A stretch of 20,000 nucleotides of DNA from a bacterium (GTDB lineage: Bacteria; CLD3; SB21). Position 1 is the stretch's first letter; each line of letters starts with the position of its first letter. Shown here in pieces: positions 2,250 to 19,898 of this stretch. The position numbers and the translations under genes were made by a program. Under the pieces are notes generated by a model. That model was not told the DNA's origin. It saw nothing but the letters and a program-made list of their open reading frames with translations, and did not search any database. The stretch covers positions 148,711 through 168,710 of the forward strand of contig JABWCP010000006.1 in the NCBI GenBank assembly GCA_013360215.1. The letters are read 5' to 3'.

Positions 2250-3317
2250 ATGAAATCCAAGTCGGTCAAGAAAAACAAACCCACGGTAAAAAGGAATAGT
2301 GTAAAATCACAGCCAAAGATGAACGAATCAAAGAGCTCTCTATCCTATCGCGCGCTGGGCTTGACGCCCGACGATTTGCTGCGCATGTACCGGTTGATGA
2401 AACTGACACGCCAGTTTGATCAGGGCATCATACGTCTGTACCGTCAGAATAAAATGATCGGCGGTGCTTATAGCGGATGGGGTAATGAAGCGACGGCCGT
2501 AGGTAGTGCGTATCCGCTTTTGCCGCACGATTATTTGTATCCGATGCATCGCGATATCGGTGCGCATTTTACCAAAGGTCAGTCAGCCAAAGTTTTGATG
2601 CTCAACCATCTTGCCCGTGCGGAAGGCCCGACACGCGGTGTGGACGGTACGGGACATTATTATGATAAAAATCTTCGAATCGTCGGTAATATCAGCCATT
2701 TGGCAGCAATGATACCTCAAGCCGTGGGTACGGCATTGGCGTCCGTAAAGAAAAAAGAAAATGCGGTCGTGATCAATTATGTCGGTGACGGCGGTATGAA
2801 CGTCGGTGAATTTCACGAAGGCCTCAATATGGCCGCGGTATGGAAATTACCCTTTATCCTGATCATCGAAAACAATCAGTACGCGTATTCCACACCCAAT
2901 ACGTTACAGTTTGCTTGCGAAAGTCCAGTGGATCGTGCATTAGGGTATGGCATACCCGGCGTCAAAGTGGATGGTACGGATATTTTGGAAGTGTACCGTG
3001 TTTGTAAAGAAGCGTTTGAACGGGCGCGTCGCGGTGAAGGGCCGACGTTGATCGAATCGGTTACGATGCGTATGCGCGGACATGCCGAACACGACGGCCA
3101 TGAATATTATCCTCCGGGGATCTTGGAAAAATGGGAGAAGAAAGACCCGATCATGCAGTTTGAGAAATTTCTTAAATCGGAGAAATTACTCACCGATAAA
3201 ATGATCGAAGACATTGATACGTCAACCAAACAAGAAATTGATGAAGCGATCGAATATGCCGACAAAGCGCCGTGGCCAGAACCTTCGCAGGCGGCGACGT
3301 GGGTGTACGCGGAATAA
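2250..3317 (+). CDS. TPP-dependent 2-oxoacid dehydrogenase E1 alpha subunit (paralog 1)
   Basis: TPP motif GDGGMNVGEFHEGLNMAAVWKLP...ENN, RMRGHAEHD loop and KDPI motif; RBS GAGGA at 2241-2245; Lys-rich N-terminal extension. Confidence 0.92.
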   Translation: MKSKSVKKNKPTVKRNSVKSQPKMNESKSSLSYRALGLTPDDLLRMYRLMKLTRQFDQGIIRLYRQNKMIGGAYSGWGNEATAVGSAYPLLPHDYLYPMHRDIGAHFTKGQSAKVLMLNHLARAEGPTRGVDGTGHYYDKNLRIVGNISHLAAMIPQAVGTALASVKKKENAVVINYVGDGGMNVGEFHEGLNMAAVWKLPFILIIENNQYAYSTPNTLQFACESPVDRALGYGIPGVKVDGTDILEVYRVCKEAFERARRGEGPTLIESVTMRMRGHAEHDGHEYYPPGILEKWEKKDPIMQFEKFLKSEKLLTDKMIEDIDTSTKQEIDEAIEYADKAPWPEPSQAATWVYAE

Positions 3318-3356
3318 TTAAATCCTAATATTAACATTGGTAAAAAATACTTACGC

Positions 3357-4385
3357 ATGACCGGTCAAAGTAAAACAACGACAAAACCATACGCTCATTC
3401 GACGGAACTGGATCTGAAAAAATACGAGCCGACCAAAGAGCAGATGAAAGAAATGTACTATTTTATCATGCTCAATCGCGCGTTCGATGATCGCATCGCC
3501 AAACTTTACCGCCAAGGTAAAATCATCGGAGCCGCTTACGGCAGCCGCGGGCAGGAAGCCACCAGCGTGGGTTCGACGTATGCGTTGGGTCCGGATGATA
3601 TCGTCGGGCCGATTATTCGAAATGCGGGCTCCATCATCGTGCGCGGGCTACCGGTTAAAAATTTCTTATCTAATTTTGTCGGTCGTTCGACCACTCCGAC
3701 GCGCGGTCGCGATGGCAATTCGCACTTAGGTGATTTGAATATGGGCGTCTTCGCTCCGATTTCACATTTGGGGAGTCTGATCAGCAATATCGCCGGTTGT
3801 GCACTGGCATTCAAAATGAAAAACGAACCGCGTGTGGCGCTGACCTATATCGGGGACGGAGGTACGTCCACAGCCGAGTTTCACGAAGGTATGAATATGG
3901 CCGCCGTGATGAAATTACCTTTTATTTGTATTATCGAAAATAATAATTGGGCGTATTCGACACCGACGCGAACTCAAGCGATGATCAAAGATTTTGCTAT
4001 CAAAGGCAAAGCTTACGGCATGGAGGCCATCGTCGTGGACGGCAATGATGTTTTCGAGGTGTTTCGTACGACACGGTACGCGGCCGAACGCTGTCGAAAA
4101 GGTATGGGGCCTATTTTGATCGAAGCGAAAACCATGCGCATGAAAGGTCATGCGGAGCACGATGATGCGTTTTATGTTCCCAAAGAACAATTTACAGAAT
4201 GGCAGAAAAAAGACCCGATCGCGCGTGCAGAAACGTATCTTTTGGATAAAAAATACATGACCGCAACTGAAAATGAGGCCTTAAAACAACGTGTGGCGAA
4301 AGATATGGAAGAAGCGGAAGAATTTGCACTTAATGCGCCGTTTCCAGCCATGGAAGAAGCGGTGACCGGAGTATACGCTGATTAA
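3357..4385 (+). CDS. TPP-dependent 2-oxoacid dehydrogenase E1 alpha subunit (paralog 2)
   Basis: TPP motif GDGGTSTAEFHEGMNMAAVMKLP...ENN, RMKGHAEHD and KDPI; colinear with paralog 1. Confidence 0.92.
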   Translation: MTGQSKTTTKPYAHSTELDLKKYEPTKEQMKEMYYFIMLNRAFDDRIAKLYRQGKIIGAAYGSRGQEATSVGSTYALGPDDIVGPIIRNAGSIIVRGLPVKNFLSNFVGRSTTPTRGRDGNSHLGDLNMGVFAPISHLGSLISNIAGCALAFKMKNEPRVALTYIGDGGTSTAEFHEGMNMAAVMKLPFICIIENNNWAYSTPTRTQAMIKDFAIKGKAYGMEAIVVDGNDVFEVFRTTRYAAERCRKGMGPILIEAKTMRMKGHAEHDDAFYVPKEQFTEWQKKDPIARAETYLLDKKYMTATENEALKQRVAKDMEEAEEFALNAPFPAMEEAVTGVYAD

Positions 4386-4397
4386 GGAGGAGAGACG

Positions 4398-5723
4398 ATG
4401 AAAAAATTAATTCTATTATTTGTTTTGTTCGTTCATTCGACATTTGCTCAAACATCATTTGCCATTATCCCTTTCACGGGAACCGCCGATGTAGGTGTTA
4501 ATGATCGCGAAGCTTTTGTTAGCGGGCTTTATCAAGGGATGACGAATAGCGGGCGTTACCGTATCGTCGATCGCAACCTGATCGAACAAGTATTGAAAGA
4601 ACAAAATTTTCAACTGAGTGACTTAACGGAACAGAAAAAAGTTATCGAATTCGGAAAAATTGCCGGGGCTGAAAAAATTATAACCGGTAAAATGTTCAGA
4701 TATTCGTCGACACAACCGGCAATTACATTTTCCGTGATTGATGTTTCAACCAGTCAGGTTGAGTTTTCCAAAGAAATCACATATAACAATTATACGTTTT
4801 CTAACCTAAGCAGTTTTTTGGTATCGCAGTTAATTGATAAGTATCCGCTGGTCGGTAAAGTGCTTGGTAAATCCGGAGATGTCTATATCATCAACATCGG
4901 ACTCAATCAGAATATCAAAAACGGAACGCGCATTTTTGTGGCTAGAAATAATGTCCTCAAAGGTGATGACGGTGAAATTTTGATGGAAGAGTATAAGCGC
5001 GTCGGTATTTTAGAGGTGACATTAGCCGACAAAGCGCGTTCGCAATGCAAGCTACGCAGTTTGGTTGAAAGCAATGTTATCATTCAAAAAGACGATATGA
5101 TTTCTCCGGATCCGATACCGGAGCGACCGGCACTTGTTTCGGATAAGCCTTTTTGGACTGGTTATTCAAAAGGCGAGCTGCTTTTAGATGATGATATGAG
5201 TAAAAAGCAGTATCTATCTGTAACGAGCGCTATGGGCGAAACCTACAAAGATGGACGGCTTTTTATCAATACGACACATTTGAATTCCGGTCATGGGTAC
5301 TGCTATTATCCGGCACCTTTTGACGCCGTGGGAGATTTTGTATGCGAAGCAGAAATTACGTTTGAAAAAAACACTGAAAAGTATAATAGGGTAACTTTTA
5401 TATTTAGAAATGTCGGTGCGTACGGCGAAGGAAACGGTTATTCGTTATACTTTACTAATGACGGTTCTTACCAAATGGATTATATGCGTAACGGGTTTTT
5501 GTTCCCGATTATCAAATTTACTTCAACCCCTACATTGAAACGTGGCACGTCAAAAAATATATTGCGCGTCGTAGCCAAAGGCTCAAAATTTGATCTTTAT
5601 TTCAATGATCAGTTTTTAGCTGCATTTGAGCATGAGGCAATAGAAAAAGGCGGTTTTGGAATTTGGTCCGGGCAGGGAAGTCACGTATCCGTGGACAATA
5701 TCAAAATCTGGAATATTAAATAA
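4398..5723 (+). CDS. Secreted hypothetical protein with CsgG/HfaB-like N-domain, FlgT-C-like middle domain and DUF1080/LamG-like beta-sandwich C-domain
   Basis: Strong RBS AAGGAGG; signal peptide MKKLILLFVLFVHSTFA|Q. Domain cues: YRIVDRNLIEQVLKEQ...GKIAGAEKIITG (CsgG-like), GKVLGKSGDVYIINIG..QNIKNG (FlgT-C-like), LRVVAKGSKFDLYFND...GGFG...VDNIKIW (DUF1080-like). Domain calls are by eye. Confidence 0.65.
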   Translation: MKKLILLFVLFVHSTFAQTSFAIIPFTGTADVGVNDREAFVSGLYQGMTNSGRYRIVDRNLIEQVLKEQNFQLSDLTEQKKVIEFGKIAGAEKIITGKMFRYSSTQPAITFSVIDVSTSQVEFSKEITYNNYTFSNLSSFLVSQLIDKYPLVGKVLGKSGDVYIINIGLNQNIKNGTRIFVARNNVLKGDDGEILMEEYKRVGILEVTLADKARSQCKLRSLVESNVIIQKDDMISPDPIPERPALVSDKPFWTGYSKGELLLDDDMSKKQYLSVTSAMGETYKDGRLFINTTHLNSGHGYCYYPAPFDAVGDFVCEAEITFEKNTEKYNRVTFIFRNVGAYGEGNGYSLYFTNDGSYQMDYMRNGFLFPIIKFTSTPTLKRGTSKNILRVVAKGSKFDLYFNDQFLAAFEHEAIEKGGFGIWSGQGSHVSVDNIKIWNIK

Positions 5724-5739
5724 AACTCCTTATTTAATA
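5714..5739. terminator. AT-rich inverted repeat between convergent genes, possible bidirectional terminator
   Basis: TATTAAATAA (5714-5723), loop AACTCC, TTATTTAATA (5730-5739): a perfect 10-bp stem overlapping the + strand stop and lying just past the - strand stop. Confidence 0.45.
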
Positions 5740-5744
5740 CAAGA

Positions 5745-6920
5745 TCAGCAGCAGCCATCCGGCCCACAACAGGCTTCGCTCAGAATAGTTTCATTGTAAT
5801 CCATACCTTTAGTTTCGCGCGCGTGACGGCGAGCATTCTTATTGCAATTAAAGAATTTTGCCGATTCTAAAGAAATAATCTCTTTAGGACTTACCGCAAA
5901 AATATCATTGGCGTACGGCCCTTTTTCCCGCGTATAAATGCCAAATGTTTTATCACACACGGCCATACGCTCCCCACGAAAAAGTGTATGTCCGTCATCA
6001 TCTATAACGGCTTTCCAAGGACCTTTATAGATCACGGCTTGTTGGCGTTCAAGGCAAGGACCTTCTTTTCCTTTGTAACCGATCACGGTGACCGAACGGT
6101 ATTCGATACCTTCCACCACTTGCCATGGTGAGGTTTCCCATTTGTCTAAACTAATACCGTAGAACCCCGCTTTTTCAAAAGCTTTCAAAAATTCATCCTC
6201 ACGAAATGCACCGGAGATACAGCCGCTCCAGAGTTCTGGGTTATTTTTCTGATGAAGCGGTATGTCTTCATCAGAGACTATATCCGATATAGCAAAGCGG
6301 CCGCCTGGTTTCAAAACGCGATATATTTCGGCGATGAGATTTTGACGGTCTTCTTCCCGGACAAGATTGAGTACACAATTGGACAAAACGACATCCACGG
6401 AATTGTCGTGAATCATCGGCCGTTGGTTGCGAAGTTCTTCTGTAAATAATTCCAAACGTTGCAAATCATCACCGTGTTGGATAGGGTTTTGACGCACATA
6501 AGCATCGAGCGCATCCCAATCCAATTTCAAATCCTGTATTTTTCCTCGATGAAATGTAACATTGGTATAACCCAGTTTTTGTCCGATAGGATCTTTGTAC
6601 TTGCGGGCTAAAGCTAACATTTCGGAGTTCATATCGACGCCGAGTACACGCCCTTCGGAACCTACGATTTGCGCGGCGATATAACAGATTTTTCCACCGC
6701 CGCTGCCCAAGTCCAATACCGTTTCTCCGGGGCGCACATAACGCGAGGGGTCGCCGCAACCGTAGTCACGATCAAGGATTTCCTGAGGTAAAATTTGAAG
6801 ATATTTTGAATCGTATGAAACAGGACAACATAAAGAGGCAACGGTCGTGCGTGCGCCTTCGGTATATCGTTCGGTTACCGCTTTTTCCACATTGAGTGCG
6901 AGTTCGTCGTTAGCAGACAT
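5745..6920 (-). CDS. arsM: As(III) S-adenosylmethionine methyltransferase, ArsM/AS3MT-like
   Basis: SAM motif VLDLGSGGG; conserved ArsM Cys positions LCCP, YGCG, SNCVLNL and WSGCISGA; C-terminal domain ending CCGPDGCC. ATG at 6920 follows GGGAGAG and is preferred over the ORF-track start at 6935. Confidence 0.8.
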   Translation of the reverse strand: MSANDELALNVEKAVTERYTEGARTTVASLCCPVSYDSKYLQILPQEILDRDYGCGDPSRYVRPGETVLDLGSGGGKICYIAAQIVGSEGRVLGVDMNSEMLALARKYKDPIGQKLGYTNVTFHRGKIQDLKLDWDALDAYVRQNPIQHGDDLQRLELFTEELRNQRPMIHDNSVDVVLSNCVLNLVREEDRQNLIAEIYRVLKPGGRFAISDIVSDEDIPLHQKNNPELWSGCISGAFREDEFLKAFEKAGFYGISLDKWETSPWQVVEGIEYRSVTVIGYKGKEGPCLERQQAVIYKGPWKAVIDDDGHTLFRGERMAVCDKTFGIYTREKGPYANDIFAVSPKEIISLESAKFFNCNKNARRHARETKGMDYNETILSEACCGPDGCC

Positions 6921-6939
6921 GCTTAGCTCTCCCAAAAAA

Positions 6940-8055
6940 TTATTGAATCAAATAATAAATGCAAGCTGCGATAACAGCAGCTATGGGTAGTGTTAACGCC
7001 CATGAAAGAACGACTTGCCCTATCACTTTGAAATCGGCTTGACCGGTAATAATGCCTATTCCGGAAATAGCGCCTACGGACACATGGGTAGTGGATACAG
7101 GCAAACCCCACCGACTTGCAAAAATAACAAGAAATCCCGTGACAAGATTGGCCGTCAGTCCCTGGCCGTGGTTCATAGATGTGATTTTTTTACTCATAGT
7201 ACGCGCTACTTTGCGGGCATTGAGTAAACCGCCGATGGCCATAGCTATTGCGATGGCTACCATGGACCACTCGATGCGCATAATCTGCGCAGCAAAAACA
7301 AGCCCGACGATTTTAGGTGTATCGTTGAGACCGCGTGCAAAGCTAACCATAGCCGCGCTTAGATAATGAAGTACGTCCACCAGGCGCTGCGCTGAAATGC
7401 CCATCACGGCGCCGCCGTATCGTCTTTGGCAGGAAACTTCATCGCCAACAGTAATTTCAGGCAGGGTCACGGTCTGAAACGAAAGAGCATGCGCGGGTCG
7501 AGGGGTAGGTATGACGGTTTGGCAGGTTCCAACGCAAATGCAGTGTTCTTCTCGAATACCAGCCCAAATCCGAATTTGACGAAATATTACATAGACAATC
7601 GCGGCAACGACTACGGAAACCAACGGACTAATTAACAGAGGTATAAAAAAGGTTGAACCTAATTTTTCTGTATTTAATTGGGAACCTACAGCGAGGAAAC
7701 CTGCGCCGGTAAGCGCACCGGTTAGGCCGTGTGTCGTCGAAATGGGAAATCCGAAAAATGAAGCGATGAGAACCGTTAAACCGGCGCCAAGAGCTACTGC
7801 GGTTAAAAATTCGGGAGTAACTGTCAATGTATCCGGCACAAGCCCTTTACCTGAAAAATTACTCACGAGTGATTGAGCAATAAAAATCGAACATACCGAA
7901 CCCGCAAAGGTAGTGACGGTCGCGAGCCCAATCGAGGCTTTATATCCTAGTGCTTTACTGCCGTAGAGCGTTGCAACACCTTTAAAATTATCATTTGCAC
8001 CGTTGCTGTACGCGACAAAAAGCGCTCCGGCAAAAAGCAGTACGATCATCGCCAT
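6940..8055 (-). CDS. PiT/CysP-family inorganic anion transporter with atypical signature and Cys-rich loop
   Basis: PiT repeats NGANDNFKGVAT...PISTTH and RGLNDTPK...PVSTTH...SWALTLP; highly hydrophobic; loop HCICVGTC...SC. Confidence 0.88.
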   Translation of the reverse strand: MAMIVLLFAGALFVAYSNGANDNFKGVATLYGSKALGYKASIGLATVTTFAGSVCSIFIAQSLVSNFSGKGLVPDTLTVTPEFLTAVALGAGLTVLIASFFGFPISTTHGLTGALTGAGFLAVGSQLNTEKLGSTFFIPLLISPLVSVVVAAIVYVIFRQIRIWAGIREEHCICVGTCQTVIPTPRPAHALSFQTVTLPEITVGDEVSCQRRYGGAVMGISAQRLVDVLHYLSAAMVSFARGLNDTPKIVGLVFAAQIMRIEWSMVAIAIAMAIGGLLNARKVARTMSKKITSMNHGQGLTANLVTGFLVIFASRWGLPVSTTHVSVGAISGIGIITGQADFKVIGQVVLSWALTLPIAAVIAACIYYLIQ

Positions 8056-8093
8056 TTTTATGCCCTAATTAATTTCAAGTTATTTATTTTGAA

Positions 8094-9110
8094 TTATGCC
8101 GTTGTCCCGCCGCAACTGCTGCCCGCCCCCGCCGTACATCCGAAACAATGCGATGCAAAAAGGATAGTGCGATTTCGTATTCTCGTCGCATCAAAATTGA
8201 AAACGCTAAGCGGTTCGTGATCATGGGATTGCATGCCGAGCATTTGGTTGAAATCGCAATCGTAGATTTTTCCGTCATAACTCACACTGATCAGAGTTCG
8301 GCACATGATACCTTGCGCCGCGCCGGGATTAAATGCATTTATTAACTTCATCATGTATTCGTCGTATTTGCCCGTACGCTCAAGATCTTCCCGAAAGCGA
8401 TGGATCGGCATATTGGTGATCGTAAATAGATTATTGAAGTGAATTCCGAATTTGTCATGCAAACTGCGTTTATAGTCCGCCTCCAACGCTCCTTGAGCAG
8501 CGGGAAGGTATGTACCGACGGGGTTGTACACTAAGTTGAGCACAAGGCCTGAACCGTCTTTTCCAAAACCCAGCGCATTGAGATTTTTTAACGCCGCGAT
8601 GCTTTTATTAAAAACGCCCCGCCCGCGTTGCTTATCCGTAAAATATTCCTCATAAAAAGGTAGCGATGAAATCACTTCAATCCCGTGATCGGCGAAAAAC
8701 TGCGGCAGGTGCGTCATCGGTTGTTTGGTCAGAGGATGAGGGTCCTGCGATACGGTGAGGTTATGCCGAACCATGACGTGTTTTCCCATTCGTCGCGCTT
8801 CGGTAACCAAAAACTCAAAATGCGGATTAAGTTCCGGGGCGCCGCCGGTAATATCGAGGTTTTTTATTTCGTCATGCGCCGCAAGTATCGCCAAACAGCG
8901 ATCTACGGTAGGGCGATCCATTTGCTCGGTGCGCTTGGGTGAAGCATCCACGTGGCAATGACGGCAGGCCTGATTGCACAGTTTGGTTATATTGACTTGC
9001 AACGTATGAATGCCGAGCGGCGGTAATGTCAACTCATGCTCACGCAGTTTTTCATGAAAAGAATATTTCATATCGGCCGGAGATATCGGCAATATTTGTG
9101 GCAGTTGCAT
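8094..9110 (-). CDS. arsS: Arsenosugar biosynthesis radical SAM protein ArsS
   Basis: LQVNITKLCNQACRHCHVDASP (CxxxCxxC), DITGGAPELNP, LNLVYNP, NMPIHRF, MCRTLISVSYDGKIYDCDFNQML and the C-terminal HCFGCTAGAGSSCGG, all typical of the ArsS family. Confidence 0.9.
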   Translation of the reverse strand: MQLPQILPISPADMKYSFHEKLREHELTLPPLGIHTLQVNITKLCNQACRHCHVDASPKRTEQMDRPTVDRCLAILAAHDEIKNLDITGGAPELNPHFEFLVTEARRMGKHVMVRHNLTVSQDPHPLTKQPMTHLPQFFADHGIEVISSLPFYEEYFTDKQRGRGVFNKSIAALKNLNALGFGKDGSGLVLNLVYNPVGTYLPAAQGALEADYKRSLHDKFGIHFNNLFTITNMPIHRFREDLERTGKYDEYMMKLINAFNPGAAQGIMCRTLISVSYDGKIYDCDFNQMLGMQSHDHEPLSVFNFDATRIRNRTILFASHCFGCTAGAGSSCGGTTA

Positions 9111-9115
9111 AATTT

Positions 9116-9448
9116 TTATACGTTGAGGTTGTCTAAATTATTCAGCATTTGTACACCGTGTACGAGCGTGATGCCGGCCATCATGGCGGAGGCGACGTGT
9201 ACCGCTTCGGTCATTTGGTCGGGGCTTGCACCGCATTCGAGGCTCTGCGTCGTATAGGCGTCAATACAATAAGGACAGTTTTTAGCATGGGCTACAGCCA
9301 AAGCGATCAGGGCTTTTTCCCGTTTGGTCAATGCGCCGTCTTTGCCGGTAACCTCATTGTAATACGCAAAAAATTTATCCATCAGTTCTTTGCGAAATCT
9401 CCCTACGTCGCCAAATTTTTTAAGGTCTTCACTTTCGTAGTAATTCAT
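9116..9448 (-). CDS. AhpD/carboxymuconolactone decarboxylase family protein (arsenosugar-cluster-associated peroxidase-like)
   Basis: GALTKREKALIALAVAHAKNCPYCIDAY (CxxC) and EAVHVA..M.AG.TLVHGVQM. ATG at 9448 (MNYYESEDLKKF) follows GGGAG and gives 110 aa; stop is 5 nt from arsS. Confidence 0.85.
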   Translation of the reverse strand: MNYYESEDLKKFGDVGRFRKELMDKFFAYYNEVTGKDGALTKREKALIALAVAHAKNCPYCIDAYTTQSLECGASPDQMTEAVHVASAMMAGITLVHGVQMLNNLDNLNV

Positions 9449-9547
9449 CTTGGGGCTCCCATGTTGTAAGAATACTGATGAGGAAAAAGGATTAATTTTC
9501 TGAAGACTGAATGATGTAACTCGGAGGTAAAACAAATATTCCCATGT

Positions 9548-10714
9548 TTATTTGTTATCCACCTGCGATTCGATGACGGATTGGATTTCTGCAGGTACGC
9601 GATTGAGGAAATCATATCCGGTGGAGGTTTCGATTTGGTCCACGGATGTTCTGTACGATTTCCATGATGTGCTGCGAATACCATCGGTATTGGGCATATC
9701 CACGGCGATCACGCGTGTCAGCGTGGTGACCTGATCGGGTGTGGTTTCCTCATGAGGAAGTACAACAATGATTTTCCATACGCGTACGGGGACGGTGACT
9801 TTACCGGAAGCTATGGTTTTGAGCGAATCATAATGCCCTGACATGATAAAAAGTTCGTTACCTTCACCGGCCAAATCACGGCAATAACTTTCGAGTTCGA
9901 CCCAAGGTCCTTGGTTATTATCCGAAGCCTGAGGAAGTATATTGGTCATGTAAAATGTAGAAACATTATCGGAAGGAACTGCATTGCGATCGCCGGAGGG
10001 GCACATGTGTCCTCGATCATAACCGCTGCCGGTATAGTCACCATCTTTCACAGCATACCAACCCGCCGGCAAAATATCTGTTTTAAAGTTATCTTGACGT
10101 GCTATCGTACCGAGCCAATTTTTATTCAAGTGCCATGCGCACCAGTTGGGGATACGGCGAACATTGTCATAAGACACAGCGTATTGGGAGCGGGCGATCA
10201 GATAGTTACGCGGCGAAGCGATATTTGTTTCGCTTTGACTCGGATTGCCGAGGGAAAGATGCAAATTCGGCGTTTGGCCGGTATCGGCATCAGCTGCGGA
10301 TAGTCGGTATAGTTGTGTTTCGCTGTAGGCGCCGTTTTCACTCAGGATTTTTATGAAATAGGTGCCTACGTTTAAGTGGGGAATATCAATGGATTCTGTG
10401 ACGCCATTGGCGCCGCGGGATAAACCTACAATGGAATCGTGGCTATCCATGAGATAAAGATTATAGTCTTTATCATCCGGAACGGCTAAAGTAACTGCGA
10501 CATGACGCGGCGAACTTAATACAAAACGAAAATAATCTACATCGTCGCTAACGGATACGGTGCCTTGATGAACTTGGGGAAGTCTCGGAAATAAAATCGC
10601 CGTTTCAGGTGTATCATTGCCATCAATGGAATCCAACGGCTCGATTAAATCCGCACACCCCGCTAAAAATGCAGCAATCAATACAACCGGTAACAAGATT
10701 TGGAAGGATTTCAT
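9548..10714 (-). CDS. Lipoprotein DNA/RNA non-specific endonuclease (NucA/EndA type) with N-terminal PPC-like domain
   Basis: Lipobox FLAG|C; PPC-like DVDYFRF...DYNLYL...GTYFIKI; nuclease motifs LSLGNPS, SGYDRGHMCPSGDR, TFYMTNILPQ..NNQGPW..LE and TGYDFL. Confidence 0.9.
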   Translation of the reverse strand: MKSFQILLPVVLIAAFLAGCADLIEPLDSIDGNDTPETAILFPRLPQVHQGTVSVSDDVDYFRFVLSSPRHVAVTLAVPDDKDYNLYLMDSHDSIVGLSRGANGVTESIDIPHLNVGTYFIKILSENGAYSETQLYRLSAADADTGQTPNLHLSLGNPSQSETNIASPRNYLIARSQYAVSYDNVRRIPNWCAWHLNKNWLGTIARQDNFKTDILPAGWYAVKDGDYTGSGYDRGHMCPSGDRNAVPSDNVSTFYMTNILPQASDNNQGPWVELESYCRDLAGEGNELFIMSGHYDSLKTIASGKVTVPVRVWKIIVVLPHEETTPDQVTTLTRVIAVDMPNTDGIRSTSWKSYRTSVDQIETSTGYDFLNRVPAEIQSVIESQVDNK

Positions 10715-10803
10715 ATAAAAAGATAAAAAAACTTATGATTCGTCCAAAGAATTTTTCAAAGCTTTTCTTGTTTCTTAGTTTCAAAATTATTATGATAGCC
10801 CGC

Positions 10804-10841
10804 CTTAATAATCCGCTAATATTTACATAACAAAATTTACA
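10804..10841. promoter_or_regulatory. Candidate PhoB/OmpR-family binding site (11-bp-period direct repeats) in the divergent promoter region
   Basis: TAATA 10806-10810, TAATA 10817-10821 and TAACA 10828-10832 have an exact 11-nt period; ATTTACA also occurs at 10821 and 10835. The region is AT-rich, so chance is possible. Confidence 0.4.
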
Positions 10842-10876
10842 CTTCGATAATTCAAATTTAATAACGAGGAAATACT

Positions 10877-11521
10877 ATGAGGGTAGATCGTATCATCGAG
10901 GCGTTTTTACCACGTGAAGACAAATTTTTTAAACTTTTTGAAGAAACAGCCCAGCACCTGATCACGGCATCGGATCTGATGGTCAAACTGATGAATTGTC
11001 CGGCGGAGGAGCGTTTAGCCGTGAGTCAGGAAATTCATAAATTGGAGCACTTGTGCGACGACACAGCGCATCGGCTTTTTTCCGAGCTGAACGCCACATT
11101 TGTAACGCCGTTTGATCGCGAAGATATTATGATGCTGGCATCGGCACTGGACGACGTCATGGATTTTTTGGACGAAAGCGCGCGACGCATTATACTATAT
11201 AAAATCACTTCTATTCCGGCAAATATGAAACAATTGGCCGACGTGCTCAAAGAATCTATCACCGAGACACATCACGGCGTGAGCCATATTCGGAATATCC
11301 ATAAGACGGATGGTATTCGTAAAACACTGGAACGTATCCATGCCTGTGAAAACAAAGCGGATATGGTTTTTGAAATGGGAATAGCGGACCTTTTTGATAA
11401 TGAAAAAGACCCGATTAATTTGGTCAAGCTCAAAGATATCTATACCAGTCTCGAACGCTCCACGGATAAGTGCGAAGATGTCGCCAACGTGCTCGAAGCG
11501 ATCCTCATCAAGCACGCGTAA
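10877..11521 (+). CDS. DUF47 family PhoU-like phosphate transport regulator
   Basis: LPREDKFFKLF, EHLCD, TFVTPFDREDI..LASALDDVMD, ENKAD and LERSTDKCEDVANVLE; RBS GAGG; directly upstream of a pit gene. Confidence 0.92.
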   Translation: MRVDRIIEAFLPREDKFFKLFEETAQHLITASDLMVKLMNCPAEERLAVSQEIHKLEHLCDDTAHRLFSELNATFVTPFDREDIMMLASALDDVMDFLDESARRIILYKITSIPANMKQLADVLKESITETHHGVSHIRNIHKTDGIRKTLERIHACENKADMVFEMGIADLFDNEKDPINLVKLKDIYTSLERSTDKCEDVANVLEAILIKHA

Positions 11522-11536
11522 AGGGAGATATTGCTC

Positions 11537-12532
11537 ATGATGGAGCTACTTATAATTACGATAGCCTTGGCATTAATCTTTGATTTTATCAATGGCTTTC
11601 ACGATGCGGCCAATTCGATCGCAACCGTCGTTTCCACGCGCGTATTGTCGCCGTTCAAAGCGGTGATTTGGGCGGCGGCATTTAACTTTATTGCGTACTG
11701 GTTTTTTGAATTGCATGTCGCTGATACGGTCGCCAAAACAGTAAAGCCGGAGGGTTTTACTTTGGTCGTTGTTACAGCCGGATTGATCGGTGCGATCATA
11801 TGGAATTTGTTAACATGGTGGTGGGGAATTCCGTCGAGCTCCTCACACACGTTGATGGGCGGTTTCGCCGGTGCGGCTGTGGCATATGCCGGCGGTGATT
11901 TTTCTGTAGTACGCTTGGATAAAGTAACTCCGGTCGTATATTTTATCTTGCTGGCGCCGATTCTCGGTATGTTGGTTTCATATACGATTTCAGTGATTAC
12001 GATTCATATCTGCAAGCGTATGAGTCCCCATAAAGTGGACAAAGTATTTCGTCAATTGCAGTTGTTTTCTTCTGCCGCATTTAGCCTCGGTCATGGTGCC
12101 AACGATGCCCAAAAGGTTATGGGTATTATAGCCGTGGCAATGTATTCACAAAAAGTCATTCCTAGCCTTGATCACATACCGGATTGGGTTCCTTTATCAT
12201 GTCATGCAGCAATTGCGTTTGGGACCATGGCAGGCGGATGGCGTATTGTGAAAACGATGGGACAAAAAGTTACTAAACTCTCTCCGTTTGAGGGCTTTGC
12301 AGCTGAAACGGCCGGAGCAATGACACTTTTTGGAACAGGCATGACAGGTATTCCTGTCAGTACGACGCACACGATTACCGGCTCGATCATCGGCGTAGGC
12401 GTGATCAAACGCGTATCCGCCGTTCGCTGGGGCGTAACTCGCAATCTGCTGTGGGCATGGGTTTTAACCATTCCGATTTCAGGATTGTTTGGCGCGATTT
12501 GTTATTGGATTGCTTCGTTTTTTGTTTCATAA
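11537..12532 (+). CDS. pit: Inorganic phosphate transporter, PiT family
   Basis: Canonical signatures NGFHDAANSIATVV, GIPSSSSH, HGANDAQK, GIPVSTTH and AWVLTIP; ATG 11537 follows GGGAG. Confidence 0.93.
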   Translation: MMELLIITIALALIFDFINGFHDAANSIATVVSTRVLSPFKAVIWAAAFNFIAYWFFELHVADTVAKTVKPEGFTLVVVTAGLIGAIIWNLLTWWWGIPSSSSHTLMGGFAGAAVAYAGGDFSVVRLDKVTPVVYFILLAPILGMLVSYTISVITIHICKRMSPHKVDKVFRQLQLFSSAAFSLGHGANDAQKVMGIIAVAMYSQKVIPSLDHIPDWVPLSCHAAIAFGTMAGGWRIVKTMGQKVTKLSPFEGFAAETAGAMTLFGTGMTGIPVSTTHTITGSIIGVGVIKRVSAVRWGVTRNLLWAWVLTIPISGLFGAICYWIASFFVS

Positions 12533-12561
12533 AACTTCGGATTACAATTTTTATATTCGAT

Positions 12562-12596
12562 AAAAGGCTGCTCGGAAATGAGCAGCCTTTTTTTTT
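12562..12596 (+). terminator. Rho-independent terminator after DUF47-pit
   Basis: AAAAGGCTGCTC-GGAAAT-GAGCAGCCTTTT, a perfect stem followed by a T tract. Confidence 0.9.
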
Positions 12597-12681
12597 GGAT
12601 TTCTTTGTGCTTTTCTTTTTTAAACGCGATGTGTATCATGGGTAATGAATGGATTGGGGATTACATGAATTTGAGGTATGT

Positions 12682-14385
12682 ATGAAAAATAGAAGAAATA
12701 TTTCATATCTGGCTTTGATAGGTATCATCATTTCCTTTTACGGTTGTTCATCCAAATCTCCACGAACAACTCCGCCCAAGCCGCCGCGTCTTATTGTTTT
12801 TATCGCACTAGATCAGTTTCGCTATGACTATCTGACGCGGTTTAGTACGCATTTTGGACCGGACGGATTTAATTACCTCCTCAATGGCGGAGCAAGTTTT
12901 GCCAACTGCTTATATGAACAAGCCACGACGCACACATCGGTGGGGCACGCGACGATGATGAGCGGTACGTTGCCGTATCGGCATGGTATCATTGCCAACT
13001 ATTGGTGGAGCCGCGAATTGCATCGCTATATTTACGCACCGGAAGACACTTTGGCGCCGATACTGGGAATTGAAAAGCAAAAAGCAACAGACGGGCGTTC
13101 GCCGCGCAATTTTAGCGGAATCAATTTTGCCGATGCCTTACGTGAAAAAACGAACGGCCGGGCTAAAGTATTTTCCGTGTCCAATAAAGACCGCTCCGCC
13201 GTATTGATGGGCGGGAAAAATCCCAATGGCGCATATTGGATGGTAAAAAACCGCGGAGGGTTTTATACCAGCACGTATTATATGAAGGACTATCCGGTGT
13301 GGGTAAAGGATTACAATGCTCAAAAACCGGCGGACAAATATTTTGGCATGTCGTGGGACATGCTGCTGGATAAAGAAAAATATCCGGTCATGAAACCGGA
13401 GATACTTCGCTTACTGGATTTGCCGAGTTCGGGTTTTGGGCATAGTTTCCCGCATCCACTCAAAGGATTGACGTCGGACAGACCTGATACGATGTACTAC
13501 AAAGAACTGATCCATACGCCGTTTGCCAGTGAAATGATTTTGGATTTTGCAAAGGCGATTATTCAAAATGAAGCTTTAGGTTCGGACGAGGTTACGGATC
13601 TTCTTTGCATCAGTTTATCGGCCAATGACGAAATAGGGCACAGTTTCGGACCATCGAGTCCGGAGGTGATGGATATCACTGTACGGACCGACCGTTTGCT
13701 GGCGCAGTTTTTTAAGTATATCAATAATGCCGTCAGAGAAGAAGATGTCCTGTATGTGTTGACGTCCGATCATGGTGTTCCTTTTTTCCCGGAAGAAATG
13801 ACCGACCGGGGTGTGACAGCCGCACGGGTTCATCCCCGAAAATTGGCCGCTGTGGCCGATTCGATCATGGCTTTGAAGTACGGAAAATTGCCTCAGGGAA
13901 AACAATACGTTGATCGGATAGCGTACCCGGATTTGTATTTTGACGGCCGTGTTTTGGCGGAAAAAAAGATTGATAAAGAAGAAGCGTCCGATTATATTAG
14001 CGCGGTTTTTGAACAATCGCTGCCGATCATCTATAGAGCGTATTCGGGCACGCGGTTAAAGCGCGGTCTAGTGCCGTCCGATCCTATATCCGAAGCTGTA
14101 CGTAAAAGCTTCCATTCTCGCCTGAGCGGGGATGCCGTGATAGTGCTAAAACCTTTTCACGTATGGGATTCCAATGGCCTAGGAACCGAACATAGTCTTC
14201 CGTATGCGTATGATGCGCAGGTGCCTTTGATATTCAAAGGAAAACGTTGGATCAAAAGCGGATTGTACAAAGACGAAGTCGCACCGACCGACATAGTTCC
14301 CGTTTTGTCGGTGATCACCGGTTGCGAAGATCCGGGCGGTAGAGATGGACAAGTGCCCGATCAGTTATTGAAATTTTCAAAATAG
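12682..14385 (+). CDS. Alkaline phosphatase superfamily lipoprotein, PafA/PhoK type
   Basis: DQFRYDYL, Thr nucleophile region TTHTSVGHAT, GIIANYW, SNKDRSAV, NDEIGHSFGP, TSDHG and GTEH...YDAQVPL. Lipobox FYG|C. ATG 12682 follows GAGG and is preferred over 12649. Confidence 0.88.
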   Translation: MKNRRNISYLALIGIIISFYGCSSKSPRTTPPKPPRLIVFIALDQFRYDYLTRFSTHFGPDGFNYLLNGGASFANCLYEQATTHTSVGHATMMSGTLPYRHGIIANYWWSRELHRYIYAPEDTLAPILGIEKQKATDGRSPRNFSGINFADALREKTNGRAKVFSVSNKDRSAVLMGGKNPNGAYWMVKNRGGFYTSTYYMKDYPVWVKDYNAQKPADKYFGMSWDMLLDKEKYPVMKPEILRLLDLPSSGFGHSFPHPLKGLTSDRPDTMYYKELIHTPFASEMILDFAKAIIQNEALGSDEVTDLLCISLSANDEIGHSFGPSSPEVMDITVRTDRLLAQFFKYINNAVREEDVLYVLTSDHGVPFFPEEMTDRGVTAARVHPRKLAAVADSIMALKYGKLPQGKQYVDRIAYPDLYFDGRVLAEKKIDKEEASDYISAVFEQSLPIIYRAYSGTRLKRGLVPSDPISEAVRKSFHSRLSGDAVIVLKPFHVWDSNGLGTEHSLPYAYDAQVPLIFKGKRWIKSGLYKDEVAPTDIVPVLSVITGCEDPGGRDGQVPDQLLKFSK

Positions 14386-14838: not shown

Positions 14839-15813
14839 ATGGCTAATATTACATATCTCGAAGCCATTTCGATGGGTTTGCGCGAAGAGATGCAGCGCGA
14901 CGGCAATGTATTTCTGATCGGTGAAGACATCGGTGTCTATGGCGGCGCGTTCAAAGTAACCAAAGGATTTATCGACGAGTTTGGCGCCGAGCGTGTTATG
15001 GATACGCCGATTTCCGAAGCCGGTATTATCGGTGTGTGTGTAGGCTCCGCGCTTATGGGGATGCGTCCCGTGGCGGAAATGCAGTTTGCCGATTTTATTT
15101 CCTGCGGATTCAATCAGCTTGTCAATCAGGCCGCTAAAATTCACTACCGATGGGGCGAGGCGGTACCGATGGTCGTTCGTTGTCCCTCGGGCGGTGGCGT
15201 GCACGGCGGTCCTTTTCACTCACAAAATCCCGAAGCATGGTTTTTTCACGTACCGGGATTAAAAGTGGTTTCCCCGTCAACGCCCTACGATGCCAAAGGG
15301 TTGATCAAAGCGGCGATTCGTGACAATAATCCTGTATTATATTTTGAGCACAAGTTTTTGTATCGTCGTATCAAAGGGGAAGTTCCGGAAGACGACTACA
15401 TCGTGCCGATCGGCAAAGGGGACATCAAGCGCGAAGGTAAAGACATGACGGTCGTGGCGTACAGTTCGGCTGTGCATTGGGCGCTCGAAGCGGCAGAGAT
15501 CATCGAAAAAGAGGGCGTCAGCGTCGAAGTGCTCGATCTGCGCAGCATTTTACCGTACGATAAGGAACTGATTCTCCAATCGGTTCGCAAAACCAATCGA
15601 GTCATCGTCGCTCACGAAGCTACGCTAACCGGCGGGGTCGGTGGCGATATTGCAGCGTTCATCACCGAACACGCTTTTGAATCGCTCGATGCGCCGGTGA
15701 AACGACTTGCGGCGATTGATACACCCGTGCCGTACAGCCCGCCACTCGAAGCATATTTCCTTCCCAACAAGGACAAAATGCTGGCGATGATGCGCGAGCT
15801 CGCGGCTTACTGA
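14839..15813 (+). CDS. 2-oxoacid dehydrogenase E1 beta subunit
   Basis: GEDIGVYGGAFKVT, DTPISE, EMQFADF, GGPFHSQNPEAWF, FEHK, DLRSI and PVPYSPPLE. Confidence 0.95.
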   Translation: MANITYLEAISMGLREEMQRDGNVFLIGEDIGVYGGAFKVTKGFIDEFGAERVMDTPISEAGIIGVCVGSALMGMRPVAEMQFADFISCGFNQLVNQAAKIHYRWGEAVPMVVRCPSGGGVHGGPFHSQNPEAWFFHVPGLKVVSPSTPYDAKGLIKAAIRDNNPVLYFEHKFLYRRIKGEVPEDDYIVPIGKGDIKREGKDMTVVAYSSAVHWALEAAEIIEKEGVSVEVLDLRSILPYDKELILQSVRKTNRVIVAHEATLTGGVGGDIAAFITEHAFESLDAPVKRLAAIDTPVPYSPPLEAYFLPNKDKMLAMMRELAAY

Positions 15814-19823: not shown

Positions 19824-19898
19824 CGGGGTGTAGCGCAGCCCGGTTAGCGCGCCTGCTTTGGGAGCAGGATGTCAGGAGTTCGAATCCCCTCACCCCGA
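19824..19898 (+). tRNA. tRNA-Pro (anticodon TGG)
   Basis: Acceptor stem CGGGGTG/CACCCCG, D arm GCGC/GCGC, anticodon arm CCTGC-TT TGG GA-GCAGG, T loop TTCGAAT, discriminator A. CCA is not encoded (CAA follows). Confidence 0.97.

Follow-up and report, generated by a model that had tools for sequence, protein, structure and literature searches.

An arsenosugar pathway encoded by arsM and arsS has reportedly been described in Synechocystis sp. PCC 6803 by Xue et al. in 2019 and Cheng et al. in 2021. As set out in PMC8552651, bioRxiv 10.1101/2024.02.01.577332, PMC12159101 and bioRxiv 10.1101/2022.09.23.509062, ArsM generates dimethylarsenite, DMAs(III), which ArsS converts to dimethylarsinoyl-adenosine, and the introduction of the last of these adds that Synechocystis strains mutated in arsS show no arsenic sensitivity. 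It is a long-standing question whether arsenosugars are simply the end-products of detoxification or metabolites made for a purpose. Here we analyze a 20,000-nucleotide stretch of bacterial DNA (contig JABWCP010000006.1, positions 148,711 to 168,710; hereafter the window) in which four genes at 5745-9448 encode an AhpD-like protein, an ArsS-family radical S-adenosylmethionine (SAM) enzyme, a PiT-family transporter that we call PiT-ars, and an ArsM-like methyltransferase. These genes were probably inherited together as a module that carries out the first committed steps toward arsenosugar-type organoarsenicals, with the detoxification genes at other places in the genome. Clusters of this kind are already known, and NCBI has names for ArsS, for the peroxidase-like protein and for two glycosyltransferases; the new part is the PiT-ars subfamily and its linkage to ArsS and ArsM.

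Organization of the cassette

The four genes all lie co-oriented on the minus strand:

9116-9448, minus strand: AhpD-like/CMD-family protein ("arsenosugar biosynthesis-associated peroxidase-like protein"), 110 amino acids (aa), CPYC motif; TIGR04169, PF02627 (CMD)
8094-9110, minus strand: ArsS-family radical SAM enzyme, 338 aa, Cys form, not selenocysteine; TIGR04167, PF04055, PF12345 (DUF3641)
6940-8055, minus strand: specialized PiT-family transporter, PiT-ars, 371 aa, with C172/C174/C209 and Asn303; PF01384
5745-6920, minus strand: ArsM-like As(III) SAM-methyltransferase, "type A", 391 aa, with a C-terminal CCGPDGCC tail; best model NF040538, Pfam Methyltransf_31/25/11

The open reading frame (ORF) listing reproduces exactly the co-orientation and the spacing claimed in a first-pass annotation of this DNA, with gaps of 5 nucleotides (nt) between ahpD and arsS (9111-9115), 38 nt between arsS and PiT (8056-8093) and 19 nt between PiT and arsM (6921-6939), such that arsS starts 5 nt past the ahpD stop. 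We placed the ahpD start at the ATG at 9448, and not at the TTG of a longer ORF that extends to 9535, because the TIGR04169 match starts at residue 31 of the longer ORF and 16/16 aligned relatives begin at the same Met. The arsM start is the ATG at 6920, with an alternative TTG at 6935, and a GGGAG Shine-Dalgarno-like motif lies 5' of both the ahpD and the arsM ATG.

A scan of 5400-11000 for consensus promoters and terminators returned 9 and 7 sites, compared with 10.2 and 7.0 in shuffles; as such sites are no commoner than in shuffled sequence, we infer a putative co-transcription of the cassette from spacing and conservation only. Among contigs from RNA libraries (X5, X6, X8 and X13), three studies yielded pieces that overlap stretches of arsS and ahpD, and X6 alone yielded pieces that overlap arsM. 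None of these pieces extends across a gene junction by as much as 31 nt; the one from X5, at 8723-9142, enters ahpD by only 27 nt. PiT is uncovered, which makes these contigs uninformative for it. An Rfam scan of the window returned a tRNA alone and no riboswitch near the cassette.

The radical SAM enzyme and the AhpD-like protein

Searches with hidden Markov models bore out the first-pass identities of ArsS and its AhpD-like neighbor. The radical SAM protein scores 427.1 bits against TIGR04167 ArsS (cut-off 300; profile positions 7-302 of 303) and 182.9 bits against PF12345 DUF3641 (cut-off 24.9), Radical_SAM (PF04055) is also matched, and an NCBI protein 97% identical to it is already annotated as ArsS. 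Both the CNQACRHC motif (CX3CX2C) and the C-terminal tail C322-x-G-C325-TAG-x-GSS-C333-G-G are invariant in 50/50 aligned sequences. The model for the arsinothricin enzyme ArsL with its RCCLKC tail, NF040542, is absent among the protein's 21 NCBIfam matches, and the tail itself is CFGCTAGAGSSCGG, not RCCLKC. On the strength of family membership above cut-off, this ArsS is predicted to adenosylate DMAs(III) to dimethylarsinoyl-adenosine, the activity known for the Synechocystis enzyme.

The AhpD-like protein scores 159.9 bits against TIGR04169 (cut-off 120) and also matches PF02627 CMD, and its C58-P-Y-C61 motif is invariant in 17/17 aligned homologues. Adjacency of AhpD and ArsS is kept in five relatives (genomes G006, G007, G008, G011 and G014), even where ArsM and PiT are located elsewhere (G008 contig C10, G011 contig C48). 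NCBIfam also includes NF041537, a family of natural ArsM/AhpD fusions, which is matched by the window methyltransferase (134 bits) and, at profile positions 263-335, by the AhpD-like protein. Because the AhpD-ArsS pairing persists without nearby ArsM or PiT, ArsM-AhpD fusions exist and an ArsC is present in the genome, a putative role in assisting ArsS or ArsM by thiol-disulfide exchange suits the AhpD-like protein better than one as an independent arsenate reductase.

The methyltransferase

The first-pass naming of the last gene as arsM holds in part. The protein falls below every curated ArsM cut-off, that of the arsenosugar clade NF038099 included, and thereby touches a point that the annotation itself had named as counting against its reading; what stands is that the ArsM cysteines are kept and that orthologues are ArsS-linked. 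The best match is to NF040538, the arsinothricin ArsM (361.2 bits, cut-off 500, 319/356 profile positions), followed by 198.4 bits against NF008823, arsenite methyltransferase (cut-off 263), and 126.5 bits against NF038099 (cut-off 400), with Pfam reporting Methyltransf_31/25/11. In an alignment to solved ArsMs (5evj, 4fr0/4kw7) the cysteines of the GCG, SNCV and GC(I/L)xGA motifs are conserved, three unambiguously, and the protein has an N-terminal CC pair where the alignment is offset by 3 residues. We take the four catalytic cysteines to be C44, C72, C174 and C224 in CmArsM numbering. That four conserved cysteines are required for ArsM catalysis is stated in PMC8552651.

Type-A ArsM orthologues (52-70% identity) adjoin PiT-ars in 17/80 loci of the survey described below, including loci of Xenococcus and Waterburya cyanobacteria, Verrucomicrobiota, Brocadia and Omnitrophota, and they are linked to ArsS in cyanobacteria too. 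The window protein ends (5745-5790) in ...EACCGPDGCC, a four-Cys tail outside the region aligned to solved ArsMs and reminiscent of the cysteine tails that bind As(III) in ArsL and ArsS.

PiT-ars and its site residues

PiT-ars scores 220.1 bits against PF01384 PHO4 (cut-off 33.7) and shares just 25% identity with the window's housekeeping PiT (11531-12532). Its AlphaFold2 (AF2) model, with a predicted local distance difference test score (pLDDT) of 78.9, has TmPiT (6l85) as top PDB match at TMq 0.75. Site residues were assigned from a profile alignment to 6l85, the residue list in PMC7413737 and our own alignment of 87 PiT-ars sequences. The TmPiT phosphate-2Na ligands D22, S106-T107-T108, D245 and S321-T322-T323 are retained in 87/87 PiT-ars, and in 87/87 the acid of the third (fore) Na site is replaced by Asn303, where the window's housekeeping PiT has Glu. 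In TmPiT the third-Na acid is D327, and the D327Q substitution abolishes phosphate binding, according to PMC7413737.

A central loop of ~55 residues, which the housekeeping PiT lacks, carries a Cys triad (C172, C174 and C209; CxC...C) in 74/87 PiT-ars sequences. From topology by homology, we take the loop position to match the large intracellular domain of SLC20 proteins. As(III) is classically bound by a set of three thiolates, and the triad as an As(III)-type site is a lead, not a result. Judged by sequence identity, PiT-ars is a tight subfamily (51-66% identity over at least 8 phyla). NCBIfam has no model for it, and our search of a literature library, with supplements and any gene-neighborhood figures in them outside its scope, found no paper describing a PiT in arsenosugar clusters.

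Linkage of PiT-ars to arsenic enzymes

In species-representative genomes, at least 596 stretches encode a PiT-ars relative, and linkage was counted on the best 80 loci (51-61% identity), which come from Cyanobacteriota, Bacteroidota, Planctomycetota, Verrucomicrobiota, Acidobacteriota, Ignavibacteriota, Omnitrophota, Pseudomonadota, KSB1 and Fidelibacterota. Proteins of Acidobacteriota, Thermodesulfobacteriota, Methylococcaceae, Dehalococcoidia, KSB1 and Elusimicrobia share 56-66% identity with PiT-ars. The counts were as follows:

Best 80 loci, within 6 kb of PiT-ars: ArsS 37, ArsM 35, either 41, both 31
The 52 loci with at least 4.5 kb on each side: ArsS 27, ArsM 24, either 29, both 22
Window's phylum, 20 genomes: ArsS 14, PiT-ars 12, PiT-ars also ArsS-positive 12
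Flavobacteriaceae sample, 121 genomes: ArsS 95, PiT-ars 9, PiT-ars also ArsS-positive 9

Acr3 homologues occur in only 3/80 PiT-ars loci. When 10 of the 39 PiT-only loci were traced to their genomes, ArsS was encoded elsewhere in 7/10, these seven being 5/5 Bacteroidota, one cyanobacterium and one gammaproteobacterium. In the window's phylum, PiT-ars is present in 0/6 ArsS-negative genomes, and one 100% complete genome (G009) is without both; in the Flavobacteriaceae, 5/9 PiT-ars lie within 4-6.5 kb of ArsS. Co-occurrence was sampled in these two lineages only, whose members are relatives and not independent. PiT-ars nearly always implies ArsS, whereas ArsS does not need PiT-ars, and we therefore regard PiT-ars as a pathway accessory. 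The first-pass view of the PiT as the cluster's own transporter was thus strengthened by both the 80-locus survey and the phylum co-occurrence, which make it a conserved accessory of such clusters.

Synteny pointed the same way. Three genomes of the same family (G006, G007 and G014) contain AhpD-ArsS-PiT-ArsM in identical order at 65-83% identity, with flanks unrelated to those of the window, and a further locus (L041) contains ArsS-PiT-ArsM with ArsS and ArsM 69-70% identical to the window proteins. The same order in three family genomes with unrelated flanks, together with the 41/80 PiT loci linked to ArsS and/or ArsM, indicates grouping beyond chance. No ArsR adjoins the cassette in the host genome (G000), G006, G007 or G014, and a DUF2064 (TIGR04282-type) gene lies immediately 5' of the cassette in G006 and G014. 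In G014 (contig C9, 54839-55929; locus L106) the PiT of an otherwise intact cassette breaks into two reading frames around residue 235, as either a pseudogene or an assembly error.

Other genera of the same family contain a second design, ArsS...PiT-DUF547-ArsM, in which the ArsM is 66-68% identical to the flavobacterial NF038099 type; genomes with this design sometimes hold a separate AhpD-ArsS pair. In a quick IQ-TREE phylogeny of 88 PiT rows, the PiTs of the window, G006 and G007 group in one starred clade, and those of the second design join Bacteroidota PiTs in another. Mapped on this tree, the ArsM-type label changes 4 times versus 14 in shuffles, with 0/500 shuffles as low, a comparison that is descriptive only, as kin share labels; the "type B" label was given to every ArsM match at 26-33% identity and checked only in L017 and L048, which pass NF038099, and L079, which fails. 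The correspondence of PiT clades with ArsM type suggests that each PiT travels with its ArsM type.

Several other gene contexts recur around PiT-ars. In a Verrucomicrobiota locus (L061) a phosphate-selective porin gene lies immediately 5' of ArsM-PiT-ArsS, and a 76%-identical porin homologue is found at the edge of L024, ~5 kb 5' of its PiT; porin genes in this position favor inward flow. A class-I pyridine-nucleotide disulfide oxidoreductase recurs in 11/80 PiT-ars loci. Three Scalindua loci (L008, L009 and L010) have the order Pyr_redox_2 - DUF547 - AhpC - DsbD_TM - redoxin - CMD (177 aa) - PiT - GT2 (cellulose-synthase-like) - DUF3179, with thiol-redox genes (AhpC, DsbD, redoxin and CMD) ahead of the PiT, and since the L008 genome is without ArsS, DUF547 and GT2 appear to travel with PiT-ars even in its absence. 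Five Acidobacteriota loci (L004, L029, L044, L045 and L057) have SPASM/twitch radical SAM genes on either side of PiT-ars; L004, whose genome is without ArsS, adds a B12-binding radical SAM protein, a flavin monooxygenase and an alcohol dehydrogenase. These Acidobacteriota loci may represent a different organo-arsenic or organo-phosphorus pathway. ArsS itself scores above cut-off in 95/121 sampled Flavobacteriaceae species genomes (G021, G030-G149), making it near a family trait in these non-phototrophs.

The host genome and the surroundings of the cassette

The host genome comprises 3.72 Mb in 56 contigs, is 100% complete and belongs to a GTDB phylum of only 20 species genomes. The first-pass remark that the flanking genes do not look cyanobacterial agrees with RpoB placement: the nearest relatives (82-88% identity) are labelled only "bacterium", and the next (67-71%) belong to KSB1, Bacteroidota and Ignavibacteriales. 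This protein-level placement makes the host an uncultured heterotroph of the FCB group rather than a cyanobacterium. Near-identical sequence is present in sequencing runs labelled activated sludge or bioreactor.

That no resistance genes accompany the cassette, as the first-pass annotation had it, is true of the window, where Pfam on 18 large ORFs found no arsR, arsC, acr3 or arsB, but not of the genome, which has arsR-arsC-acr3 on contig C49 and arsR-arsM on C28. Two ArsM lineages thus coexist in the host, of which one is linked to ArsR and the other to ArsS. Genes of interest elsewhere in the genome are:

Contig C49: arsR-arsC-acr3; acr3 TIGR00832, 450.6 bits (cut-off 282.8)
Contig C28, 15316-16535 (L087, 3316-4535): second, canonical arsR-arsM pair; NF008823, 336 bits (cut-off 263)
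Contig C45: TIGR04283 "arsenosugar glycosyltransferase" adjoining a DUF547 gene; 233 bits (cut-off 182)
Cassette's own contig, ~36 kb upstream: TIGR04282 glycosyltransferase; 181 bits (cut-off 134)
Contig C49: fatty acid hydroxylase, 57% identical to the one of the flavobacterial arsenosugar cluster

The TIGR04282 gene overlaps by 4 nt with the end of a geranylgeranylglyceryl/heptaprenylglyceryl phosphate synthase gene (contig C36, 117500-119033; L086, 3502-5033), an ether-lipid enzyme scoring 298 bits against NF003198 (cut-off 247), and chemotaxis genes then follow. This neighborhood may link arsenosugar transfer to an isoprenoid-glycerol acceptor.

The remaining features of the window are:

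2250-4385 and 14839-15813: tandem E1-alpha (PF00676) pair and matching E1-beta (transketolase-like), ~10.4 kb apart
9548-10714: non-specific endonuclease with a lipoprotein signal (secreted type), PF01223
11531-12532: housekeeping PiT of a divergent PhoU_div/DUF47 + PiT pair, ~3 kb from the cassette
19824-19898: tRNA gene at the window end, Rfam RF00005, 63.6 bits
Within the window: PafA-like alkaline phosphatase, NF042991, 392 bits, below the cut-off of 650
Other ORFs with Pfam matches: PTPS, GNAT/CN-hydrolase, lipoprotein, glyoxalase, aldehyde dehydrogenase, aminotransferase

The genes at 9548-14385 form a phosphate-scavenging-looking block beside the cassette. The ~10.4 kb between the E1 genes, occupied by the lipoprotein gene, the cassette, the nuclease gene and those of Pho type, resembles a block inserted into a 2-oxoacid dehydrogenase operon. 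A Flagellimonas locus (L019) likewise has an E1_dh gene near PiT-ars.

Discussion

The enzymatic core of the cassette is likely devoted to arsenosugar-type synthesis. In the pathway that we propose, a tetrahedral oxyanion would enter via PiT-ars, most likely arsenate, with phosphate as the alternative, and As(V) would be reduced to As(III) by the ArsC of contig C49 and/or a thiol relay. Type-A ArsM would then use SAM to methylate As(III) twice to dimethylarsenite, as family resemblance and the conserved cysteines suggest, and ArsS, by virtue of its family membership above cut-off, would couple this to the 5'-deoxyadenosyl radical to give 5'-deoxy-5'-dimethylarsinoyl-adenosine. The CxxC AhpD-like protein could act as the thiol-disulfide helper of ArsS or ArsM, to judge from its strict adjacency and the ArsM-AhpD fusions, and later steps could fall to the DUF547 protein and the two glycosyltransferases (TIGR04282 and TIGR04283) whose genes lie at other places in the genome.

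The role of the transporter is the less certain part, and that PiT-ars is an arsenate importer feeding this core is an assignment we make tentatively, at slightly less than even chances. A rival account, which we think unlikely, has the cassette serve detoxification: the PiT would import phosphate, sustaining its supply or out-competing arsenate, and ArsM and ArsS would turn As(III) into harmless arsenosugar precursors. The complete retention of the TmPiT phosphate/Na site in PiT-ars fits this account, and so does the company kept by phosphate transporters in other arsenic clusters, such as PitA in a B. gladioli ars cluster (PMC8552651), PstS in cyanobacterial ars clusters (bioRxiv 10.1101/2022.09.23.509062) and the Microcoleus PiT grouped with ArsR, a PstS-like protein, Acr3, ArsH and ArsC. 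The window cassette, moreover, lies beside the PhoU_div-PiT pair, the PafA-like phosphatase and the secreted-type nuclease. However, that housekeeping pair, only 3 kb away, already equips the host with a PiT, and PiT-ars tracks biosynthetic rather than efflux genes (Acr3 in 3/80 loci versus ArsS in 37 and ArsM in 35). The absence of an adjoining ArsR from all four cassettes of this order (host, G006, G007 and G014) also argues against detoxification, as does the report that loss of arsS leaves Synechocystis unsensitized (bioRxiv 10.1101/2022.09.23.509062).

Transport in the outward direction is improbable, although exporters are common in biosynthetic clusters, as with the arsinothricin exporter ArsQ of arsQML (PMC8552651), and a PiT might similarly expel an arsenical oxyanion made by the pathway (methylarsonate or dimethylarsinate). 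The Asn at the third-Na position in 87/87 PiT-ars means that ion coupling may differ from that of importing PiTs, but the characterized PiT members that we encountered are importers (6l85; PMC7413737), the binding site is that for a fully oxygenated tetrahedral anion, and the phosphate-selective porin genes upstream in L061 and ~5 kb away in L024 suggest inward flow. Still more improbable, to the point where we give it very little weight, is a different product altogether, either akin to arsinothricin or some other organoarsenical (or selenium) compound that is not a sugar. Such a product is raised by the nearest ArsM model, NF040538, which is the best methyltransferase model at 361 bits over 319/356 profile positions, and by the selenoprotein forms of the TIGR04167 family implied in the model name; yet the methyltransferase lies 139 bits under the NF040538 cut-off, the radical SAM protein has no NF040542 match and ends in CFGCTAGAGSSCGG instead of RCCLKC, the window has no GntP-type ArsQ, and the genome holds both arsenosugar glycosyltransferase families.

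Arsenosugar-type synthesis fed by PiT-ars must nonetheless be set against a number of observations that weigh on the other side. The methyltransferase is under all curated ArsM cut-offs, with the arsinothricin ArsM as nearest model, co-transcription is argued from spacing and conservation only, and the RNA-library contigs, which may stem from carried-over DNA, are evidence of neither expression nor co-transcription. As for the transporter, 3/10 sampled PiT-only genomes (a Pyrinomonadaceae member, Scalindua and an Ignavibacteria metagenome-assembled genome) are without ArsS; two genomes of the window's phylum (G017 and G018) have ArsS without PiT-ars; and PiT-ars is found in just 9/95 ArsS-positive Flavobacteriaceae and is hence dispensable for the pathway, the 9/9 co-occurrence in that family having a chance expectation of ~0.11 at the given base rate. 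The Microcoleus loci (PiT-ArsR-PstS-like-Acr3-ArsH-ArsC-ArsS) are a resistance context, where arsenate import would be counter-productive. The Cys triad is absent in 13/87 PiT-ars, namely 12 Bacteroidota and L041, the nearest outside relative, and its loop is modelled at low confidence (AF2 pLDDT 44-56). Pho-regulon linkage was rejected as a general rule, the window's flanking genes recurring beside the cassette in 0 of 10 relatives' loci.

A transporter of the phosphate/arsenate type that travels with ArsM and ArsS over at least 8 phyla hints at deliberate arsenic uptake by some bacteria. Taken to its full extent, PiT-ars would be a dedicated arsenate importer with a cytoplasmic CxC...C loop that senses As(III), and its carriers would acquire arsenic deliberately for arsenosugars or arsenolipids; we consider this speculative and, on present evidence, doubtful. 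If true, purposeful arsenic could serve, for example, phosphate-sparing membrane or surface components, and the host cassette would be wired into a phosphate-scavenging neighborhood, apart from the ArsR-controlled detoxification genes. A host whose PiT-ars cassette is separate from a complete arsenic-resistance set offers a simple, testable handle on the purpose of arsenosugars. The analysis further points to a PiT subfamily that lacks annotation and has an As(III)-type Cys triad and an altered ion-coupling residue, and the counts of 95/121 sampled Flavobacteriaceae and 14/20 genomes of the window's phylum indicate that ArsS-type genes are common in non-phototrophs.

Comparison with known systems

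In contrast to a classical ars resistance operon, the cassette has no ArsR, ArsC and Acr3/ArsB beside it, such genes being found on C49. With the arsM-arsS pair of Synechocystis sp. PCC 6803 it shares an ArsS-family radical SAM gene that adjoins an As(III) methyltransferase gene, presumably co-transcribed, and would share the reaction of DMAs(III) with the 5'-deoxyadenosyl radical. It differs from that pair in an ArsM of a different lineage (only 126 bits against NF038099), a PiT gene between both enzymes, an AhpD-like gene ahead of ArsS and an uncultured FCB-group heterotroph, not a cyanobacterium, as host.

The arsQML cassette of Burkholderia gladioli (PMC8552651 and bioRxiv 10.1101/2024.02.01.577332) is likewise a three-/four-gene grouping of a radical SAM enzyme, an ArsM-type methyltransferase and a permease, and its methyltransferase is the nearest curated relative of the window enzyme. 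The window's radical SAM enzyme is, however, of the ArsS type and not an ArsL with an RCCLKC tail, its permease is a PiT and not a GntP-type ArsQ, and the cassette lies outside any ArsR-controlled ars operon. PiT-ars has the same fold as TmPiT/SLC20 transporters (TMq 0.75; 6l85) and identical phosphate-2Na ligands (PMC7413737), whereas it departs from TmPiT in its 22% identity, the Asn in place of D327, the extra ~55-residue loop and the genomic linkage to arsenic enzymes.

The NCBIfam arsenosugar set of Flavobacteriia comprises TIGR04169, TIGR04167, TIGR04282, the NF045521 rhodanese, PNP, the NF038099 ArsM, TIGR04283, DUF547, VTT/DedA and a fatty acid hydroxylase. In the host the genes are scattered over at least three loci, the local cassette has four genes and the ArsM is of type A, not NF038099. 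The AhpD-like-ArsS pair is common to both, the PiT-ars subfamily is also found in flavobacterial clusters, and the host genome, like the flavobacterial set, has TIGR04282, TIGR04283, DUF547 and the 57%-identical fatty acid hydroxylase.

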